Shown: piece after piece, positions 11,881 to 52,961 of the stretch | Numbering within the stretch: the stretch's first letter is position 1 | Layout: each line of letters starts with the position of its first letter | Source: Candidatus Bathyarchaeota archaeon | GTDB lineage: Archaea > Thermoproteota > Bathyarchaeia > Bathyarchaeales > Bathycorpusculaceae | DNA length: 64,000 nt | Assembly: GCA_963828195.1 (NCBI GenBank) | Contig: CAWHDT010000009.1 | Span: forward strand, 64,001 to 128,000 | Reading direction: 5' to 3' | Position numbers and translations under genes: made by a program | Notes under the pieces: generated by a model | Databases searched by the model: none | What the model saw: the letters and a program-made list of their open reading frames with translations, nothing else | What the model was told of the DNA's origin: nothing

Positions 11881-13582
<1,702 letters not shown>

Positions 13583-45413: not shown

Positions 45414-45460
45414 TGGAGCGTTCGGCGGGATTTGGACCCGCGACATTGCCTTACCAAGGT
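45414..45460 (-). repeat. duplicated 3' half of tRNA-Thr (att-like site)
   Basis: Near-identical to 46336-46383. Confidence 0.92.
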
Positions 45461-45534
45461 GTGCATTGTCGGGTGGATGGGAAACTCGGTTTATATCAAA
45501 GCTTATATGGTCAAAAAGATGTTCTCTATCATAA

Positions 45535-45768
45535 GTGGCAGTTATGGTAAAAATCAACGGTAACAAATTCACTGTAATCTTAAGAGAGGAGCCCGACGGT
45601 GGTTATTCAGCGCAATGCTTGGAACTTCCCGGAGCAATCAGCGAAGGATACAACCGCAAGGAAGCGCTTGTCAACATTAAAGAAGCCATCGAAGGGTACC
45701 TCGAAGCTTTCCCCGAAGAGGTTGACCAGCTTAAATGCAAGAAAGAGCTGGTGGAGATAACTGTCTGA
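45535..45768 (+). CDS. hicB: HicB-family antitoxin (short form)
   Basis: EPDGGYSAQCLELPGAISEG..RKEALVNIKEAIEGYLE. Confidence 0.92.
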   Translation: MAVMVKINGNKFTVILREEPDGGYSAQCLELPGAISEGYNRKEALVNIKEAIEGYLEAFPEEVDQLKCKKELVEITV

Positions 45769-45916
45769 AAAGTTGCCGTCTACATCTTGGCGTACGGTAA
45801 TTAAAGCTCTCAGCAAAAAAGGCTTTAGAGTCGCGGGTCAAAGAGGCAGCCACATATTTCTTACTGATGGAAAACATAAACTTACGGTTCCACGGCATAA
45901 CCCTGTTCTTGAATAG
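45761..45916 (+). pseudogene. hicA: HicA toxin N-terminal part, truncated after VPRHNP
   Basis: SEKLPSTSWRTVIKALSKKGFRVAGQRGSHIFLTDGKHKLTVPRHNP. Confidence 0.85.
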
Positions 45917-45959
45917 CCCTCAAAATATCTTCAAGATAGAGCTTGATGTCTCTTGTCAT
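45905..45959 (-). pseudogene. HEPN/DUF86 toxin N-terminal remnant
   Basis: MTRDIKLYLEDILRAIQE overlapping the MNT stop, then truncated. Confidence 0.75.
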
Positions 45960-46255
45960 ACATAGATTGTCTCGTCAAGTATTTTATCCTTGATTCGTGT
46001 TTTAAGAGCGTCTTTTTGAACTAAGTCAACCTTCACCTTTAGTTTTCGACTTAAAAACTGTTTAAGCCCAATAAAATCCACCAAGTCAATGTCATTTGGC
46101 TCAAAAAAAGATACAAGAATATCCAAATCGCTTCTTTCATTTTGACAGCTCTGAGAATATGAACCAAATATGCCTACGGTTTTCACTTGAAACTCCTTTT
46201 CTAGGACTGGCTTAAGTAGCATAAGTTGCCTTTTAAGTTCATCAAGTGTTCTCAT
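45956..46255 (-). CDS. minimal nucleotidyltransferase (MNT antitoxin)
   Basis: IFGSY...SDLDILV...KVDLV. Confidence 0.92.
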   Translation of the reverse strand: MRTLDELKRQLMLLKPVLEKEFQVKTVGIFGSYSQSCQNERSDLDILVSFFEPNDIDLVDFIGLKQFLSRKLKVKVDLVQKDALKTRIKDKILDETIYV

Positions 46256-46335
46256 AGGCGCCTTCCATTTCTTTCTATAATTGAATTAATCTAAAAAAGT
46301 TTGCTAGACAACCAAAACACGACTAAAATATAATT

Positions 46336-46412
46336 TGGAGCCTTCGGCGGGATTTGGACCCGCGACCATTACCTTACCAAGGTAACGCCCCACCGGGCTA
46401 GGCTACGAAGGC
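46336..46412 (-). tRNA. tRNA-Thr(GGT), CCA encoded
   Basis: Cloverleaf GCCTTCG...CGAAGGC-T-CCA; anticodon arm TTACC-TTGGTAA-GGTAA. Confidence 0.96.
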
Positions 46413-46530
46413 AAACAATTTGTTCCCGTGAAAGAACTGCGTCTTGGCAATAAAATGCTTACGGTCGCAGCATCAATGATTTCTAAAAAAGAGTGTGCTA
46501 ATATGAATGGCAATAGTTAATCAAAGTTTA

Positions 46531-47277
46531 TTATTTTAACAATTTTTCTGGAACCATCCTCATGTATTTGTTGACATAGAACATGTCTGGTTCATGTTTG
46601 GTTGCCCTAACTCTAATGTCAAATTTTGGGTCTTGAGGATTAGTACTGTCAAATAGAATCAAACCTATGCCAAATACTAAGCAAAGTGATTCAAGTCTTT
46701 CTTTATCTTCTACGTCTGAAGCGTTGGGTATCACAATGTAAGTTTTATGACTAAAGGATCCATATGCACAAGCTTGACCAAAAGCAGTAATCAGGCCCTG
46801 AGTATCGGTTTTTATTTCAGCAGATACAATAATGATTTGGCGCTGAATTATTTCACCTAATGTAGCTCTTTCAATGCCTATTACGTCGGGTGTTCCCCAT
46901 TTATCACCGAAAGATTTTCCGCCTAATGGTATTGCTGTAGTGCACTCGCCAAGATCATTCTCTAGAAAATCAGCGAATGATGCATAGAAATCAATTTCTC
47001 TAACTGGAACGATATGCAGCTGGCTTTCTGATGTTGCAGTATTTTGTTTTTCCTTAAAAGAAACGTGCCTAAAAAGTCCTCTGCCCGCTTTATAGACCTC
47101 TGAAGGCTTGGTTGAATCAAGATTCCAAATCGTTCCTCGAATGTGGTTTACATTTGCATCGGGCAAACTGTTCTTTATTTGTCTTATTAAATTAGAATAT
47201 CGAACTCCCTCAGGGCTGTTCTTGAGAATTTCAATCGCTTTTTCCTCTATCCGTTCTTTGTAAGTTCGAGTTGGCAT
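46531..47277 (-). CDS. N-terminal HTH plus PD-(D/E)xK nuclease-like protein
   Basis: WGTPDVIG, SAEIK, AFGQACAY..F.HK.Y motifs. Confidence 0.8.
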   Translation of the reverse strand: MPTRTYKERIEEKAIEILKNSPEGVRYSNLIRQIKNSLPDANVNHIRGTIWNLDSTKPSEVYKAGRGLFRHVSFKEKQNTATSESQLHIVPVREIDFYASFADFLENDLGECTTAIPLGGKSFGDKWGTPDVIGIERATLGEIIQRQIIIVSAEIKTDTQGLITAFGQACAYGSFSHKTYIVIPNASDVEDKERLESLCLVFGIGLILFDSTNPQDPKFDIRVRATKHEPDMFYVNKYMRMVPEKLLK

Positions 47278-47373
47278 AGTTATCAAATGAAGACTTTGAA
47301 TTTAAGAACTTATTGCAAGAACTCCTTAACAGATATTAAGGTAAAATCCTTTTATACTAAACCTTAATCGCAT

Positions 47374-47461
47374 GCAGGGGTCTCCAAGCCTGGTCAACGG
47401 AGTAGGGCTTAGGACCCTATCGCGTAGGCGTTCGTGGGTTCAAATCCCACCCCCTGCACCA
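47374..47461 (+). tRNA. tRNA-Leu(TAG), CCA encoded
   Basis: GCAGGGG...CCCCTGC-A-CCA, long variable arm, anticodon arm TAGGG-CTTAGGA-CCCTA. Confidence 0.96.
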
Positions 47462-47763
47462 CTCTAAGTAAAAGTATAGCTTTTTTTGGTATGTTTGCCT
47501 GGTTTTTTGTGATCTATCGTGTTAAATGACAATGAATAAAAAATAAAATTGAGCGTTTTAAGAGAGGAAATGCCCATAGCGATCAAACAACTTAATTGCA
47601 ATAGCGGGTCACATAATAAAAATTGAAAGTAGAATTTTCTAGTTCTTGTTGCAGTAGAGAAGTTGGAATCATAAAGGTAGGCGGTATCGGAGTCTTTTCA
47701 GTGGTTCTGTTAAGCCTCTGTTGCTTGACAGAATTCTTCTCCGTGTGAAAAATCGTCCCCAAA

Positions 47764-47985
47764 CTATATTTCGTTGTAGCGGTTGCAGTTTGGACACTTT
47801 AACACAACATTCTTGAATTTTCCTTCGATGATGTTCTCGCCTAGTTTTGATCCACAATTGCCGCATAGGTAAGTAGTGTTACCACCCTTGCTTTTTATTA
47901 CTGGCAACGTTTTGGATGCAAAAACGGTTCGGTTTCCCTTTTCTGGTTCTGGTATAGTTTTTAATTTTCTGTCCATTTTATCCAC
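47764..47985 (-). CDS. small zinc-ribbon protein
   Basis: YLCGNCG...LKCPNCNRYNEI. Confidence 0.75.
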   Translation of the reverse strand: MDKMDRKLKTIPEPEKGNRTVFASKTLPVIKSKGGNTTYLCGNCGSKLGENIIEGKFKNVVLKCPNCNRYNEI

Positions 47986-48157
47986 TTACTTCGGCTTTTA
48001 TTGGTTTGACTTGGATTATAAGTTTATTGTTTTCTGCTCTTTTCGATTAGCAGTTTCAAATCAATTACACTGATAAAAAAGGGGAATGCGTGATGCCTCC
48101 ACGACTTTAGGGGTTCAAATCCACCCCCTGCACCTTTAAGCACTCGTCAAAACTCTA

Positions 48158-48208
48158 TGTCCTCGTGTCCATGTGCGTCCTTGATGGACATTTGCGGACA
48201 GGCGGGCA
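48158..48208. repeat. 51-bp six-box palindrome, downstream copy
   Basis: TGTCC-3-TGTCC-5-CGTCC-5-GGACA-5-GGACA-3-GGGCA. Confidence 0.85.
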
Positions 48209-48215
48209 ATGTTGT

Positions 48216-49598
48216 CTATACTTGCCGATGGTAACCAAGCATATCTTCTGCCATGTTCTTTAAGCTGGGATCAACAAAATAAATTTTGGTTTTGCCCTTA
48301 CTCTTTATGGCAAGTATGGATCTTTCGTTTAATGCTTTTAGATGCTTTGCAAGAGAGCTTTTCTCGGCTGCCGTTGCTTTACTAAGTGCTTCATCCCTTC
48401 CGTAGGTTTCACCTTTCTGGAAAAGATACATTAGTATCTTGTATTCTGCGTCGCTGGGTTTTAGCATCTTGACATATGACATGCCAGCTTGATCAAGAGT
48501 AATTTTCTTATAAACTGTTGAGTCGAGCTTCCTTATGTCTTGGCTTGGCAAAGCAGATAAGAGCAGGTTGGAAAGCTCGTCCAAGATTAAGCGTATGCGA
48601 CCTTCATATTTTTCGTAGATTTCTGATAGCAACTTCTTATCTGCAAATTTGTAGATGGATATGCTAGGATCAATTGAAGCATCAGAATACATCTGTGATA
48701 AGAAAGCAAGTACATCTTCTTGGCATGGAGCAAGTACTTGTTCATAGTGGAATATGTCGGGATGGATTGGTTTTAGTCCATTTCTCCTTTTCAAAACTAT
48801 AATTACGTGAGCTAAATTTGCGTTCGTATAAAAGACATCTTTCAACAGTGTCATGATTGTTTTCTCGATTTGAGCGTTTTCTAGTTTGTCTACCTCATCT
48901 AGACCGATTACTACGCCGCGATAGCCCATGGTTTGCAAAAGGGCAAATCCTCGTCTCAGCAGATTAACAAAAACTGTATGAGAAAGAGTTTCAGTCCTTG
49001 CAACCAGAACCTGTTCTTGTTCCTCCTTAGTCAAATCCACCTTTATTATCGGAATTCCGACCGTGCTTGACAGACCCTGTGTTTCTATTGTTCCATTTGT
49101 AAATGTAATTTGATCAGAAGCATAAAGAATGGATAGAAAAGAGAGTTCTTCAAGGCTTTTACTTATTGATAATTTCCTTTCAAACAATCTCTTTAAGGTT
49201 CCAAGCATACTCGCATTACGCAAAGCTTCGGTGCTGATGGCAGAACCGAAAGCTCTTAAGAATTCTTGCTCGACGCCTTTAGCATTCTCAACCCCTACAG
49301 GAACTCTGTACTTTATCGTGAAATAGTTATCTTTAGTAAGAATGTTAAGTACCTTATTTAGGAGTGAGGATTTGCCTACTCCTAGATCACCGTGGAGGGC
49401 TACTTTGTAGCTTTTGCTCGTGGAGATTCCCATGTATATTTTTTCAACGATTTCTTTGCGATCTCTAAACAAGCTCTCGTCACGTTTCAGGCTCGCTTTG
49501 TCGATACCCGGTTCAAATAGTTCAAAGACCTGAAATGGGTTTGCTTTCAAATTAAACCGCGAGAGCGCCTTAACACTTGCTTGGTAATCAATGTCCAT
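48216..49598 (-). CDS. AAA+/P-loop ATPase with C-terminal winged-helix domain
   Basis: NPF, F.DR, GDLGVGKS, IGLDEVDK, GRIR, C-terminal wHTH; start likely ATG 49598 or 49616. Confidence 0.88.
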   Translation of the reverse strand: MDIDYQASVKALSRFNLKANPFQVFELFEPGIDKASLKRDESLFRDRKEIVEKIYMGISTSKSYKVALHGDLGVGKSSLLNKVLNILTKDNYFTIKYRVPVGVENAKGVEQEFLRAFGSAISTEALRNASMLGTLKRLFERKLSISKSLEELSFLSILYASDQITFTNGTIETQGLSSTVGIPIIKVDLTKEEQEQVLVARTETLSHTVFVNLLRRGFALLQTMGYRGVVIGLDEVDKLENAQIEKTIMTLLKDVFYTNANLAHVIIVLKRRNGLKPIHPDIFHYEQVLAPCQEDVLAFLSQMYSDASIDPSISIYKFADKKLLSEIYEKYEGRIRLILDELSNLLLSALPSQDIRKLDSTVYKKITLDQAGMSYVKMLKPSDAEYKILMYLFQKGETYGRDEALSKATAAEKSSLAKHLKALNERSILAIKSKGKTKIYFVDPSLKNMAEDMLGYHRQV

Positions 49599-49642
49599 AT
49601 GTCCACACTTGTCCATTATGGACGATACTGGACACGCGGACA
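49592..49642. repeat. 51-bp six-box palindrome, upstream copy between TATA box and start codon
   Basis: TGTCC-3-TGTCC-5-TGTCC-5-GGACG-5-GGACA-3-GGACA. Confidence 0.85.
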
Positions 49643-49929
49643 TATAAGGTTTTTTGAACACAACCAACGCGATTTTCTGTTTCCGAGAGTTCTTCGTGTT
49701 TTTCCAGATGAAACAATCCCAATAAAAAAGGAAGAAAGCTGCAGAAAAAACGGTGGCTGGCGATATCGCCAGTTTGTGGGGGGGTTCAAATCCCACCCCT
49801 TGTACCATATGGATTATTTTTGGTTAAACCGAAAGTCGGGTGGCTATCTTGTTAATGGAGAATAATCTGCGGAAGGCTTAAGCCTTAAGCCTCCATCTCT
49901 GTTTACACTAAGCACGGAAAGGTTTTTGC

Positions 49930-50169
49930 ATGGTTCATCGAAGAGTTCGAGGCGGAAAGTTCAAGATAAAGCATGTTGAGAAGCAACCTCCCGTTGAGTT
50001 GGGAGAGGAATTAGATGTGCACATAACCGACGTTTGTCCTAGCGGAGATGGGATGTCAAAAATTAGGGGCTACGTCATAATTGTGCCAAAAGCCAAGCCG
50101 AGAAACCGAGTGAAGATAAAGGTCACGCAAGTCGGCGAAAAAGCGGCAACGGGCGAAATAATCGAGTAA
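49930..50169 (+). CDS. single TRAM-domain protein
   Basis: PPVELGEELDVHI...GDGMSKIRGYVIIVP. Confidence 0.9.
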   Translation: MVHRRVRGGKFKIKHVEKQPPVELGEELDVHITDVCPSGDGMSKIRGYVIIVPKAKPRNRVKIKVTQVGEKAATGEIIE

Positions 50170-50204
50170 TTCTTTTTAATTACTTTGGTGCTAACTATGA
50201 AATT

Positions 50205-51479
50205 CTACAGCATTTGAGCTATGCTCGCGATGAAGAGTATTGTTGTTATTATGATGGTTGCTAATGCTAATGTCAAGGTGGCTTTCCCAAGTTTGTATTT
50301 GCCCATTAAATCCTTGTTTCGGGTGATAATTATCAGAGGTATTAGAATAAACGGCAGCAGGAGCCCATTTAGGTATTGAGTGAAGATCATTACTTGAATT
50401 TGGTTTGGTATGAACGCGAAAATTGCAGAGATAACGAGCGCCAAGACGAATACGAACCTGAATCTTCTCGCCTTAATGCGGCTCTCCAGACCCAAAAATC
50501 CGAAGGCGGAGTAAACGGTGCCCAACCCCACGGTAACCACAGCCAATATTCCAGCGAAAGCAAAGGCAACTGCGAAAACGTCCACCCCTGCTAAACCAAA
50601 TTTGATTCTGAAAGGCGCTGCTATATCGGCGAAGCTAGTTACCGATTTGCCCCCGATGAGCAATGCGGCACTTGCGATTATGACGATAGTGAGAATTGTG
50701 CCCATCAGGATGCTGACAAAGGAATCGACTCTTTCTTTCCGCACGCATTTCCGCTCTTTAGCTAATTCTTCTTTTCTTTCGCATTCGTCTTCTTTCATCA
50801 GGTCTTCAACTCCTTTCTCGTGGTGATGAGCCCACCCTTTTTCGTAAACTAATCCGCTGTGGAGGATGACGTAAGTAGGTGTAATGGAAGCGCCTATTAT
50901 CGCCTCGGCGTAGTAGAAGGAGTTAGCTTTCACTGATGGAACAAGGGAATTGTAAACTATCTGGCCGAAGTTTGCGTGGAGCGAGAAGAGAAAATATAGG
51001 TAGGCTAAGAAGATGGCAGTGACCAGGATCATCAAGATTTTCTCTAATGTGTCGTATGAGGTTAAGAAAACAAGAAAAATATTCAGCAGAATCGATATGG
51101 ATACTGCTATGGGGTAGGCTATGTTGAATAGGAAAGAAAACGCGAGGCTTAGACCAATTATTTCAGCAGTTAGTGTGGCAAGGTTCAGAAACAGCGAGAC
51201 TGCGAATAGCGGAAGTGAATAGCGTGGTCCAAACCTTTGGTGTATATTTTCCGCTAAAGTTTTTCCAGTGACGACGCCTAGCCGGGCACTAATCTCTTGT
51301 ATTCCTATTAGCAAGATACCTGAGTAGAAAGCTGCCCATAACACTGAAAAGCCAACCGCTGCCCCAGCCGCTGTTGCCGCAACGATGCTGGCAGGATCAA
51401 ACAGCTCTACTGAGACGAGGACTGCGGGGCCAAAAACGGAAATTACCGTTAAGACCTGCTTTAGGTTAATCTTTTTCAT
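50205..51479 (-). CDS. NRAMP-family divalent metal transporter (divergent motifs)
   Basis: GPA, DPAS in place of DPGN, QEISARLGVVTGK, IIGASITP. Confidence 0.88.
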   Translation of the reverse strand: MKKINLKQVLTVISVFGPAVLVSVELFDPASIVAATAAGAAVGFSVLWAAFYSGILLIGIQEISARLGVVTGKTLAENIHQRFGPRYSLPLFAVSLFLNLATLTAEIIGLSLAFSFLFNIAYPIAVSISILLNIFLVFLTSYDTLEKILMILVTAIFLAYLYFLFSLHANFGQIVYNSLVPSVKANSFYYAEAIIGASITPTYVILHSGLVYEKGWAHHHEKGVEDLMKEDECERKEELAKERKCVRKERVDSFVSILMGTILTIVIIASAALLIGGKSVTSFADIAAPFRIKFGLAGVDVFAVAFAFAGILAVVTVGLGTVYSAFGFLGLESRIKARRFRFVFVLALVISAIFAFIPNQIQVMIFTQYLNGLLLPFILIPLIIITRNKDLMGKYKLGKATLTLALATIIITTILFIASIAQML

Positions 51480-51851
51480 GTGCCCATTTTCCTTCAGATA
51501 TCAGATGAAGATGCCGAATCAATGTCTAAAATATTTTAAACTTAATTATTAAACATTACAATTAGAGACCAGCCTTCCAAACTTCGACCTTTTCCCATCT
51601 TGCTGGGGGTTCAAAATCCCCCTCCCCCGCAACTAAATTTATGAGAACTTGGAAATTTCTGCAGAAACTGGTGAGTCATTCGCCCTCATTATTTTTATAA
51701 ACAAAAATTGGTGAGTAATAGCGACGGCTGAATCGGAGAGAGATTTCTTCTCAATAGTTTTTTAAGGCGATACGCCATAACGTTCCAATCACTGTAGGCA
51801 TTTACCTATGGTCGGGAGTTAATCACTATCCACGTCAAGGGATGCAAAATC

Positions 51852-52961
51852 ATGAATAAAAAATTGCTAGTAGCCATTTTTGTAACATGTTTTCTTTTTT
51901 CAGTCGTAGTTTTTTCCCAAATAGCCTATTGTCAAAAATCAACACCAAGCTCTACGACACAGCCAACCCCCGCTAAAGCAGGAATACTTGGAAGCACCTC
52001 TGCCTTATTACTTATTGGCGGAATCGTAGCGGTTGTAGCGGTAGTTGTTGTAGTAACTTTTGTTTTCGTTTTTAAGAAGAGGGGGCGTGGAAAGAGTCTA
52101 AATGGTGGAGTTTCCACTGGTGCCTTCGAAGAGCGGGTGATAAAAAAATTCAATGGTAAACCAAGTGACCCATCTACGGGCGTAAGCGGGTTTACTGAGG
52201 GAGGTCAACCTCTTTTGATCAAACAATCCGATCCTGTCCGCTTGGCTGATGTAGAAGCTTTTGTCAAAGTGCTAGTAAAAGGAGGAGCACAAAAGGGCAT
52301 AATTGTTGCACCCGATTTTGATGACACAGCTCTGGAGGGAAAAATTACCGCGTCGGAAAATGGAACTGAGCTTCAGCTGCTACGCATAAATGAACTGATG
52401 AATAAGCGTTATGCTAATAGAATTAAAGAGCTTGCTATTTCACAGGTTTCCTTTGAGGCGCCAACTACATATGCAACAGATGACCCAGTGACCAAAACAC
52501 CAACTTTTGTTGAAAGAACGCCAAATGAGCCGCAAAAAGACGGTCTGAAACCTCGTGTCTTCATATCTAACAGCAGCACCCAAGTTTCTGACCAGATAAA
52601 GAAAATGTTGGATTTTCTGCATTATGACTACGTTATGGGCGATAAAGAAGAAACAACTGTGCCAATTTCTGAAAACAAATTCGGGTTGATGCAAGACTGT
52701 GATTGCGCAATAATAAACATCGCTGCCGCTGAACAGGAGCGAAGGTACAGCGGCCTCTACATCCTTAATTCGAACGTAACCTCTGAAATCGACGCGACCT
52801 ATCTGAAATACAATACACAGGTTATTCTGTTGGTTGAGCGAAAAGTAGAGTTGCCTCCAAATCTTAAGGGTCTAAAAAGGATTGAATATGACAGTGATGA
52901 TTTATCTTTCAACGCAGCAATGGATCTCAAGAAGGCATTGGAAGACTTTAAGAAACTATAG
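51852..52961 (+). CDS. membrane-anchored Mrr-like domain fused to a TIR-like domain
   Basis: Signal plus TM; FEE.VI...IKQSD.V...V..F...KGIIVA; then RVFIS...NSNVTSEI...LPPNLKGL. Confidence 0.75.
   Translation: MNKKLLVAIFVTCFLFSVVVFSQIAYCQKSTPSSTTQPTPAKAGILGSTSALLLIGGIVAVVAVVVVVTFVFVFKKRGRGKSLNGGVSTGAFEERVIKKFNGKPSDPSTGVSGFTEGGQPLLIKQSDPVRLADVEAFVKVLVKGGAQKGIIVAPDFDDTALEGKITASENGTELQLLRINELMNKRYANRIKELAISQVSFEAPTTYATDDPVTKTPTFVERTPNEPQKDGLKPRVFISNSSTQVSDQIKKMLDFLHYDYVMGDKEETTVPISENKFGLMQDCDCAIINIAAAEQERRYSGLYILNSNVTSEIDATYLKYNTQVILLVERKVELPPNLKGLKRIEYDSDDLSFNAAMDLKKALEDFKKL

Follow-up and report, generated by a model that had tools for sequence, protein, structure and literature searches.

Replication origins with an adjacent orc/cdc6 gene have been described in haloarchaea (PMC3528665, PMC4010727). 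In Saccharolobus islandicus, Orc1-2, an AAA+/winged-helix protein with the Orc1 fold, acts as a sequence-specific transcription factor (PMC6061795, PMC9738581). The promoter of dnaA contains arrays of short boxes that are bound by DnaA, an initiator-type AAA+ protein, which represses this promoter (PMC8203912). More broadly, ATPases of the ORC/Cdc6 clade are reported to occur commonly among conflict systems and transposons (PMC10853773). Here, we consider a gene from Candidatus Bathyarchaeota archaeon (GenBank assembly GCA_963828195.1) that encodes a predicted AAA+-type ATPase with a C-terminal winged helix and that is bracketed by two copies of a 51-bp array of six short boxes. By the window, we mean the whole stretch of 64,000 nucleotides that was analyzed (contig CAWHDT010000009.1, positions 64,001 to 128,000 of the forward strand); coordinates refer to the window unless another locus is named.

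The gene, the two arrays, and the promoter element are located as follows.

48216..49598, minus strand: gene for a 460-residue protein, with a P-loop ATPase domain of the AAA+ type followed by a lid and, at the C terminus, a winged helix of the ArsR type
49592..49642, minus strand: upstream six-box array, a putative operator over the predicted transcription start; on the gene strand, TGTCC-gcg-TGTCC-agtat-CGTCC-ataat-GGACA-agtgt-GGACA-tat-GGACA
48158..48208, minus strand: downstream six-box array, separated from the stop codon by 7 nt; gene-strand sequence, TGCCC-gcc-TGTCC-gcaaa-TGTCC-atcaa-GGACG-cacat-GGACA-cga-GGACA
49643..49649, minus strand: TATA-like element CCTTATA, which abuts box 1 and is preceded by a run of A at 49650-49656

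A preliminary description of this DNA had claimed that the same six-box architecture is present at both ends of the gene and that the boxes and their spacing are kept while the spacers mostly differ. Both claims hold. A search for the 51-bp pattern TGTCC-3-TGTCC-5-TGTCC-5-GGACA-5-GGACA-3-GGACA (numbers are spacer lengths) found exactly two matches in the window, with 1 mismatch in the 30 box positions at 49592-49642 and 2 mismatches at 48158-48208, and there were no six-box matches in any of 100 dinucleotide-preserving shuffles of the window. When the two arrays are compared with each other, they agree at 27-29 of 30 box positions and at 7-8 of 21 spacer positions. The downstream array ends at 48208 and the gene at 48216, while the sixth box of the upstream array overlaps the ATG at 49598-49596. 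From start to start, the boxes are spaced 8-10-10-10-8, so the four inner boxes are 10 bp apart and the outer two lie 8 bp further out. Because the inner boxes are one helical turn apart, they should lie on the same face of the helix.

A scan of the genome for the pattern, which the preliminary description had suggested as a check, turned up no sites independent of the gene. In the whole assembly (2,830,904 bases in 9 contigs), with up to 3 mismatches allowed, the same two arrays were the only matches, and a control in which the sequence was read backwards gave 0. The three-box half-site, with at most 1 mismatch, occurs in the genome only within these two arrays, as their four half-sites; the control gave 0. 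The exact core dyad, TGTCC-N5-GGACA, has one further copy in the genome, which equals the control count of 1. Since the core dyad is otherwise at the control count and the arrays are unique, the boxes define no regulon, and nothing suggests a site for a host factor. Overall, the observation of two arrays is confirmed as real and is far beyond chance.

Related loci came from scans of GTDB genomes and of metagenomes from the Joint Genome Institute. Eight of these loci have full-length close homologs of the protein (L004, L005, and L013 to L018), and three others have N-terminal remnants (L019 to L021). Along with the window, they represent six lineages, with protein identities of 41-76%: the window itself; L013, L014, L004, and L015; L016; L005; L017; and L018 with the remnants L019-L021. 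In the second of these lineages, L013, L014, and L004 are 99.8-100% identical to each other at the DNA level and L015 is at 94%; protein identity to the window is about 75%. The other full-length proteins are more distant from the window protein (L016, 49%; L005, 46%; L017, 45%; L018, 41%).

The upstream array is kept in all six lineages. It has six boxes with 1 mismatch in the window, in L013-type loci, and in L017. L005 has five boxes, with the start codon where the sixth would be. In L019, five boxes are good and one is degenerate, at the canonical spacing; L018 and L021 have similar boxes (five good and one degenerate) and have lost the 5-bp central spacer. The array of L016 is reduced, with three exact and two degenerate boxes and a 4-bp central spacer. 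(The upstream array of L004 is cut by the end of the contig.) All lineages have TTATA or TTTAAA immediately 5' of the upstream array, and the start codon either overlaps the last box or follows it within about 10 nt.

The downstream array is kept in five of the six lineages, 4-26 nt past the stop codon. It has six boxes in the window (2 mismatches) and in L005 and L017 (1 mismatch), five boxes in L013-type loci and in L015, and four boxes at the canonical 10-10-8 spacing in L018. L016 has no downstream array. Its stop codon is followed, after 3 nt, by a gene for a DUF6915 plus ATPase_2 protein, which suggests that L016 (1940-4242) is an operon variant of the module formed by the gene and its arrays. 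Finally, L019 (4668-5084), L020, and L021 (280-726) are decayed copies of the module: each retains an N-terminal remnant of about 119 residues, the TATA box, and the upstream array, whose left-half boxes are degraded in L021.

Across the subfamily, the boxes are far more constant than the spacers between them. In a set of nine arrays, which leaves out the near-duplicates L014, L004, L015, and L020, 250 of 270 box positions match the consensus, and mean pairwise identity is 0.87 for boxes and 0.37 for spacers. The GTCC/GGAC cores of the inner four boxes (boxes 2-5) are invariant in 11 of 11 arrays, and the only box position that varies often in this 11-array alignment is the outer one of boxes 3 and 4 (Y/R). 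Boxes 2 and 3 are mostly followed by A, with T at the mirrored place, giving an effective box of TGTCCA/TGGACA. Coding constraint cannot explain the boxes, because the downstream copies are noncoding and the upstream copies of L017, L005, and L018 lie before the start codon.

The preliminary description had read the pattern as protein-binding arrays under selection. Selection on the box sequences at fixed spacing is supported. That these are probable binding arrays, and that they are tied to the gene, is well supported by their conservation on both flanks of proteins with as little as 41% identity. It had also raised the prospect of co-varying palindromes on both flanks of homologs. Arrays on both sides were indeed found, in five of six lineages, but no strict co-variation was seen within the subfamily, whose boxes stay TGTCC; other repeats were seen only in the three distant relatives that are described below.

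Arrays with this symmetry might instead act as folded single strands. They could be RNA hairpins in untranslated regions, with effects on stability, termination, or translation, or single-stranded DNA hairpins for a recombinase, like integron attC sites or the ends of IS200/IS605 elements. Both arrays are on the presumed transcript. Furthermore, six arrays that we folded as RNA form three helices of 5 bp each and internal loops, and their free energies are -16.9 to -31.1 kcal/mol; five of them have a folding z of -3.5 to -6.0, and the downstream array of the window has one of -1.7. However, when the three-helix structure was imposed on the 11 arrays, none of the 15 pairs had changed on both sides (pairs that never vary are uninformative about compensatory change). 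The one pair that often varies, columns 19/33, is unpaired in 5 of the 11 arrays, and all of 500 shuffles reached the observed values of pairing and covariation. The inner spacer positions are complementary in 0-5 of the 11 arrays, which is about what is expected by chance, and L018 and L021 do not have any central loop. Also, with the TATA element directly next to box 1, transcription should miss the left half of the upstream array. We consider it highly improbable that the arrays act as folded strands, and we read them as likely double-stranded sites for a protein.

The longest reading frame of the gene spans 48216-49808 on the minus strand, and the 460 residues are counted from M71 of that frame. 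Alternative in-frame ATGs at 49616 and 49643 lie within the upstream array or at its edge. Because of such in-array ATGs, several homologs in the databases are annotated with the N-terminal peptide MSACPxxSxMDxxGHxD, which is the translated array. The main features of the protein are as follows.

49365..49391, minus strand: Walker A motif GDLGVGKSS, residues 70-78; G70, G73, G75, and K76 are invariant in 28 of 28 aligned sequences
48885..48914, minus strand: Walker B strand VVIGLDEVDK, residues 229-238; D234 and E235 are invariant in a 13-sequence alignment
48219..48515, minus strand: C-terminal winged-helix domain, residues 362-460, ArsR/SmtB-like, with a last helix after the wing

The protein had been described as an AAA+ ATPase with a winged helix, and this assignment is borne out by the conserved Walker motifs, by the modeled ArsR-type tail, and by a match to AAA_22 (PF13401) that is above the gathering cutoff (29.6 versus 27 bits; E = 9.6e-7). 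R272 and a GRIR motif (G333 and R336) are invariant in the 13 closer sequences. We take GRIR to be a probable equivalent of sensor 2, by analogy with the GDAR motif of Cdc6. In the winged helix, the region of the recognition helix, KSALSxHL, is kept across the subfamily.

Other sequence models match more weakly. Pfam hits to AAA_16, KAP_NTPase, and BrxC/D were found, along with a C-terminal winged-helix signal; for the KAP NTPase family (PF07693), the window protein scores 18.8 bits versus a cutoff of 20, and it has no match to ATPase_2 (PF01637) at E ≤ 0.01. Among the 28 aligned relatives, 22 match AAA_22, 20 match AAA_16, 17 match KAP_NTPase (E ≤ 1e-3), and 12 match ATPase_2, while smaller numbers match MarR, ArsR, TrmB, or Penicillinase_R winged helices. 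The model for Orc1/Cdc6, TIGR02928, gives just 15.6 bits (E = 0.0056; the cutoff is 181.3), and only residues 51-89, at the P-loop, match it. Similarly, the score for HTH_metalloreg from NCBIfam is 16.3 bits versus a cutoff of 55, and membership in the ArsR family is at the level of fold only. A sequence profile search against PDB matched residues 363-443 to HlyU (4k2e) and ArsR proteins (E from 2.9e-6) and residues 205-361 to VchTnsC (E = 2.7e-6). The defense models of PADLOC gave only weak matches to winged helices (CARF/CasR-like tails), and no defense family was assigned.

The preliminary description had proposed comparing the structure with Orc1/Cdc6, TnsC, and STAND ATPases. We used an AlphaFold2 model that was built on a 28-row alignment (mean predicted local distance difference test, 86.8; predicted template modeling score, 0.81), and its overall fold is like Orc1/Cdc6, with TnsC and STAND proteins lower. 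The top four PDB matches from Foldseek are archaeal Orc1/Cdc6 proteins (2v1u, 2qby, and 1fnn; E from 1.6e-7 to 5.4e-7). Eukaryotic ORC/Cdc6 proteins come next, and SSO1545 (2fna), PABY2304 (2qen), TnsC, Apaf-1/CED-4, and BrxC are further down. In a second structure search, which does not depend on Foldseek, the best match is Pyrobaculum Cdc6 (1fnn_B; Z = 17.1, with 333 residues aligned across model residues 14-460), followed by Sulfolobus Orc1-1 (2qby_A; Z = 16.5, with 338 aligned across 15-458). Lower Z scores were obtained for TnsC (7mbw_A, 14.8; 9g0f_A and 7rzy_1, 14.2), 2qen_A (13.7), MuB (8xvb_A, 13.1), and 2fna_B (12.8). Sequence identity to the Orc1/Cdc6 structures is 12-16%. Residues 362-460 align with the ArsR-family repressor CzrA (1r1u_A) at Z = 11.6, with a root mean square deviation of 3.2 and 92 of 94 residues aligned. 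The ATPase domain has an insertion of about 125 residues between strands 93-98 and 229-234 (strands 2 and 3). In the model, then, the protein is built on the three-domain plan of Orc1/Cdc6 (AAA+ base, lid, and C-terminal winged helix), by fold and not by sequence.

We think it reasonably probable, if far from assured, that the gene and its arrays make up a self-contained module that has moved horizontally, and that the product binds these flanking arrays and represses its own promoter, with the downstream array as a second site of that product. The product is the candidate binder because the arrays accompany the gene in its homologs, on both flanks, and are absent from the rest of the genome. 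The winged helix would recognize the YGTCC/GGACR boxes, and several protomers may line up along the same face of the DNA, in an assembly with two-fold symmetry. Archaeal TATA boxes are centered about 26 nt upstream of the transcription start. Since the TATA element abuts the array, this usual distance puts the predicted start site inside the array. If so, occupation of the upstream array would block either the recruitment of RNA polymerase or the start of transcription. We propose negative autoregulation because the upstream array fills the whole space between the TATA element and the start codon. The downstream array would be bound by the same protein and would most likely cooperate with the upstream array: ATP-dependent bridging of the two could loop out the intervening 1.4-kb gene, or the downstream site could serve as a 3' boundary or roadblock. 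We also considered an antisense promoter at the downstream array, and rejected it: by eye, there is no consistent TATA-like element at the outer edge of this array.

Several points weigh against autorepression through self-binding. First, the boxes do not co-vary with the protein within the subfamily, where both stay constant, and the assignment of binder to site comes from their co-occurrence. Second, L016 works without a downstream array. Third, L018 has lost the 5-bp central spacer, which means that an exact geometry is not required at every locus. Fourth, it is hard to see a cellular job for a DNA-binding ATPase with no targets in the genome besides its own flanks, which favors the DNA module itself as the object of its activity. 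Fifth, autorepression had been among the roles first proposed for the arrays, and its spatial side stands, as the array fills the space from TATA element to start codon in all six lineages; but that the effect would be repression rather than activation is deduced from position alone.

The constancy of the boxes while the protein diverges to 41% identity might indicate that something else binds them. For instance, an unlinked protein from the host or from a helper element, such as a recombinase or a nucleoid protein, could be the binder, with the ATPase as mere cargo. However, the arrays were never seen without the gene or a remnant of it (L019-L021 keep a truncated gene), and there are none elsewhere in the genome. 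Also, the gene is absent from the 200 other genomes of the order that were searched (E ≤ 1e-5), so a dedicated host factor would be left without other targets. And the KSALSxHL region is kept, in step with the constant boxes. We view another binder as very unlikely.

The edges of the module can be located by comparing loci. L013 and L015 share a stretch of 1,513 bp at 94.4% identity, which starts 23 nt before the first array and stops 2 nt beyond the second; outside it, their flanks have nothing in common. Similarity between L018 and L019 begins at the edge of the TATA element and array (L018 4141). DNA similarity between the window and L013 begins at 49656, which is 14 nt upstream of the array, and fades at 48260, within the divergent end of the C-terminal coding region. 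The best reading of these alignments is that the module (TATA element, array, open reading frame [ORF], and array; about 1.5 kb) has probably moved between genomes of Bathyarchaeia as a unit.

The neighbors of the module vary by locus and have the look of variable islands. They include a tyrosine integrase, an AbiEi-like protein, and an HD protein (L017); ATPase_2, a DDE transposase, and an N6 methylase (L018); AbiV, an AAA_22 ATPase, and a methylase-endonuclease of the restriction-modification type (L019); a NucS-like nuclease (L005); and an AIG2-like protein (L013 and L014). In the window, the neighbors are a Zn-ribbon protein, nucleotidyltransferase and HicB-like genes (toxin-antitoxin-like), a TRAM protein, Nramp, and a membrane protein. 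The window copy also lies among fragments of a tRNA gene.

47374..47461, plus strand: intact tRNA-Leu(tag), which heads a run of cassettes bounded by tRNA fragments
48109..48138, plus strand: fragment like the 3' end of tRNA-Leu, the proximal boundary of the module's cassette
49780..49809, plus strand: fragment like the 3' end of tRNA-Leu, the distal boundary of this cassette

Altogether, there are four degenerate copies of the tRNA-Leu 3' end, at 48109, 49780, 51607, and 53010. They delimit cassettes of 0.7-1.8 kb that contain, in order, the Zn-ribbon gene; the ATPase module; TRAM and Nramp; and the membrane protein. The module is the sole cargo of the second interval (1.67 kb): the first fragment is 19 nt from the downstream array, and the TATA element is about 130 nt from the next fragment. 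The preliminary description had stated that the unit fills one cassette between tRNA attachment sites. This is so in the window, where the flanking direct repeat has a score of 17 that was reached by none of 200 shuffles, but it is not general, as significant flanking repeats were found at just one of eight loci. At the other seven loci, flanking direct repeats are at the chance level (50-190 of 200 shuffles scored as high). A gapped direct repeat around the L005 module was among the candidates that we rejected (56 of 200 shuffles reach its score).

tRNAs are also scarce around the related genes. ARAGORN identified no tRNA in eleven homolog loci, and no tRNA or tRNA fragment adjoins the gene in the loci of close homologs; a T-arm-like pattern was found only upstream in L021, besides distant matches in L017 and L018. 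In the window, there is no integrase among the ORFs scanned between 44.8 and 54.3 kb. The cassette context is a property of the integration hot spot in the window's genome, not of the module. In a search of 61 genomes from the same genus (5.7 kb), the matches listed cover the neighboring cassettes, the tRNAs, TRAM, and Nramp, and do not cover the module; a clean empty site was not found among these matches. In one locus of the same genus (L045), the Zn-ribbon cassette is followed by a different cassette, which again ends in a tRNA fragment.

We also noticed other features of this region and of the window. A 31-nt copy of the 3' end of tRNA-Thr(ggt), 97% identical, lies at 45414-45444 and encloses the nucleotidyltransferase and HicB-like genes (region 45414-46412). 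Contigs from two DNA runs join 46465 to 47373 and skip 907 bp, which implies that there are natural variants without the gene for a 251-residue protein (46531-47286) that lies between tRNA-Thr and tRNA-Leu. Among the fragmentary contigs of four DNA runs that were aligned to 46300-52000, none joins across the module or its cassette, and no RNA run containing the locus was listed. In the cassette after TRAM and Nramp, 51852-52961 encodes a 369-residue protein with an N-terminal signal or membrane segment; this protein has a weak match to the TIR model of CAP12/Pycsar effectors (17.8 bits versus a cutoff of 24.7). Farther away, 25760-25796 matches the Rfam family CRISPR-DR7 (38.4 bits versus a gathering cutoff of 37), and an archaeal 16S rRNA gene lies at 12010-13504.

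Sharp edges and island neighborhoods are what one would look for in a selfish element. The arrays could be the functional ends or the origin of a tiny element and the ATPase its end-recognition or initiator protein, with autoregulation as a secondary matter; on balance, we regard this as unlikely. The same low probability applies to its variants, in which each end carries three outward-facing boxes, like the triple sites of Mu transposase, or in which the boxes are the iteron- or ORB-like sites of a circle of 1.5-1.7 kb (ORB, origin recognition box). The points at which similarity between loci breaks off fall at the outer array edges. The window copy is alone in its cassette between tRNA-Leu repeats (0 of 200 shuffles), and the sites have no other copies in the genome. 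The fold is nearest to Orc1/Cdc6, and TnsC and MuB also match (Z scores of 14.8 and 13.1). And the neighborhoods include the integrase of L017, the DDE transposase of L018, AbiV in L019, and the toxin-antitoxin-like genes of the window.

On the other hand, the module itself contains no recombinase, transposase, primase, or helicase, and the only transposase near any copy is the DDE transposase of L018. Seven of the eight loci have no flanking direct repeat above chance. There is no AT-rich stretch beside the arrays: the G+C fraction is 0.36-0.46 in every 200-nt segment of 46000-52000. No relatives were found among PLSDB plasmids or in a scan of IMG/VR contigs that was limited to two peptide patterns. 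Also, by sequence, the protein fails as a member of Orc1/Cdc6. A more specific proposal is that this is an undescribed kind of minimal archaeal selfish element, in which a gene for an ORC-fold ATPase with a winged helix lies between palindromic arrays of its product's own sites; these would serve as ends or initiator sites, and the sole job of the protein would be to keep, copy, or mobilize its own DNA of about 1.5 kb. The window would then hold a copy that was captured as a 1.67-kb circle at the tRNA-Leu attachment site by an integrase acting in trans. We consider that proposal quite unlikely. Our preferred reading remains a mobile module whose product would bind its own flanks and repress its own promoter.

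The family is rare. Within the order, none of 200 other genomes has a homolog at E ≤ 1e-5, so that the one match in 201 genomes is the window's own. A profile search of the phylum gave matches at E ≤ 1e-8 in 9 of 401 genomes, and the match was close only in the window's genome (E = 2.7e-187; the next was 3.8e-34). A word-indexed search of 5.8 billion proteins returned 16 matches, including the window protein. An exhaustive HMMER search of 1.84 billion representatives returned 37 at E ≤ 1e-3, including 14 at E ≤ 1e-30. The named contigs with close homologs are metagenome-assembled genomes of Bathyarchaeia/Bathyarchaeota. When IMG/VR was scanned for the inner four boxes, 2 contigs were found, which is near the chance expectation by a rough estimate. 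In the IMG/VR contig L053, the box match is inside an ORF and looks like chance, and we rejected it.

Another IMG/VR contig, L052 (G+C fraction of 0.57), has about 17 GGACA/GGACG/TGTCC boxes within 190 bp (2800-2990), in an intergenic region of a phage. This region adjoins a gene for a Toprim/AAA_25 primase-helicase and is near terminase genes, and no related ATPase is present. These boxes are probably the phage's own iteron-like region, unrelated to the ATPase family.

To see more distant relatives, we inspected three loci from the phylum search by eye and with a repeat finder, without statistics. L033, which is from the same genus (E = 3.8e-34), has related palindromes on both flanks of the gene, with GTTTCCTAAAAT in common and TTCCT/AGGAA arms. 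Its repeats are a 25-nt inverted pair (80% complementarity) and a 24-nt direct pair (79% identity). In L035, two to three copies of the palindrome CTTTACAAAAACTTTGTAAAG, spaced 30-40 bp apart, lie just upstream of a TATA-like element, and nothing was seen downstream. L034 has no evident upstream palindrome and lies about 250 nt from the 3' end of a tRNA (GGGTTCAAACCCCGCCTCGTCCACCA); downstream, it has a tract of tandem repeats with a 9-nt period, including a 67-nt duplication. These loci suggest that palindromes close to the gene itself are a habit of the family, with boxes that differ between subfamilies.

Remote matches from cyanobacteria and actinobacteria (L006-L012 and L022-L031) are 22-50% identical over parts of the protein. 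We inspected the flanks of L006, L007, L008, L023, L025, L028, and L030, and some of the cyanobacterial ones have direct repeats upstream. These matches are too distant to bear on the finding. Look-alikes in the ESM Atlas are AAA_16/ATPase_2 proteins of 413-451 residues with MarR, TrmB, or Penicillinase_R tails.

Winged-helix ATPases of the ORC/Cdc6 clade occur widely among archaea and bacteria, and hardly any have been characterized. For one such family, we can now predict a concrete DNA target: a 51-bp site of six boxes at fixed spacing that is present twice. If the predicted binding is true, then the module would be a simple system for studying the recognition of short-box arrays by an ORC-like ATPase and the effect of ATP on it. 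It would also be a rare case of an archaeal gene that is controlled from both ends, and it might provide an orthogonal repressor-operator pair for archaeal genetics. The sharp edges of the module, along with the absence of other targets, raise the possibility that some ORC-like genes in islands are selfish initiator-plus-site units, which would bear on the spread of extra replication origins and initiators.

How does this locus compare with known systems? Uncharacterized archaeal ATPases (ATPase_2, including SSO1545 [2fna] and PABY2304 [2qen]) and bacterial AAA_16/AAA_22 proteins with a winged helix-turn-helix are in the same length class and have the same architecture. Our literature search identified no reported function or flanking-site architecture for the ATPase_2 proteins or for the AAA_16/AAA_22 proteins with a winged helix-turn-helix, and the family with its two-sided arrays appears to be undescribed, as judged from a narrow search that did not cover supplements. 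The report of ORC/Cdc6-clade ATPases in conflict systems and transposons (PMC10853773) fits the island context and assigns no function to the window protein.

AAA+ transposition regulators of the TnsC/MuB/IstB type resemble the window protein in the structure of the ATPase core. Mu ends carry inverted clusters of three boxes, and the ends of the module carry inverted three-box clusters as well. However, the module has no transposase partner within it or, at most loci, beside it, and no target duplications, and those ATPases lack a sequence-specific winged helix. ArsR/SmtB repressors bind inverted repeats over their own promoters. The autorepressors of this family (CzrA, HlyU, and SmtB) are like the C-terminal domain of the window protein in fold, and the central TGTCC-N5-GGACA dyad would fit a dimer of winged helices. 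In contrast to these repressors, the domain in the window protein is fused to a 360-residue ATPase, there are six boxes instead of two, and the site is duplicated at the 3' end of the gene.

Binding to an array of short boxes in its own promoter is a feature of DnaA, which, unlike the window protein, is bacterial, has another type of DNA-binding domain, and has an origin and a regulon. We know of no DnaA system with a second array past the stop codon. Orc1-2 differs in being a global regulator of the response to DNA damage with many targets, whereas the only sites of the window protein would be its own two flanks.

Finally, we compare the locus with archaeal Orc1/Cdc6 proteins and their ORB modules. 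ORB elements are longer than the window's boxes, which are 5-6 bp at 8-10-bp spacing. The arrays in the window flank the gene and not an AT-rich unwinding element, and the sequence outside them is not conserved between loci. Also, the window protein fails TIGR02928, has an ArsR-like winged helix with a terminal helix, and has the insertion of about 125 residues. Nevertheless, the two systems are alike in having a protein with a three-domain plan and inverted, repeated boxes beside its own gene.

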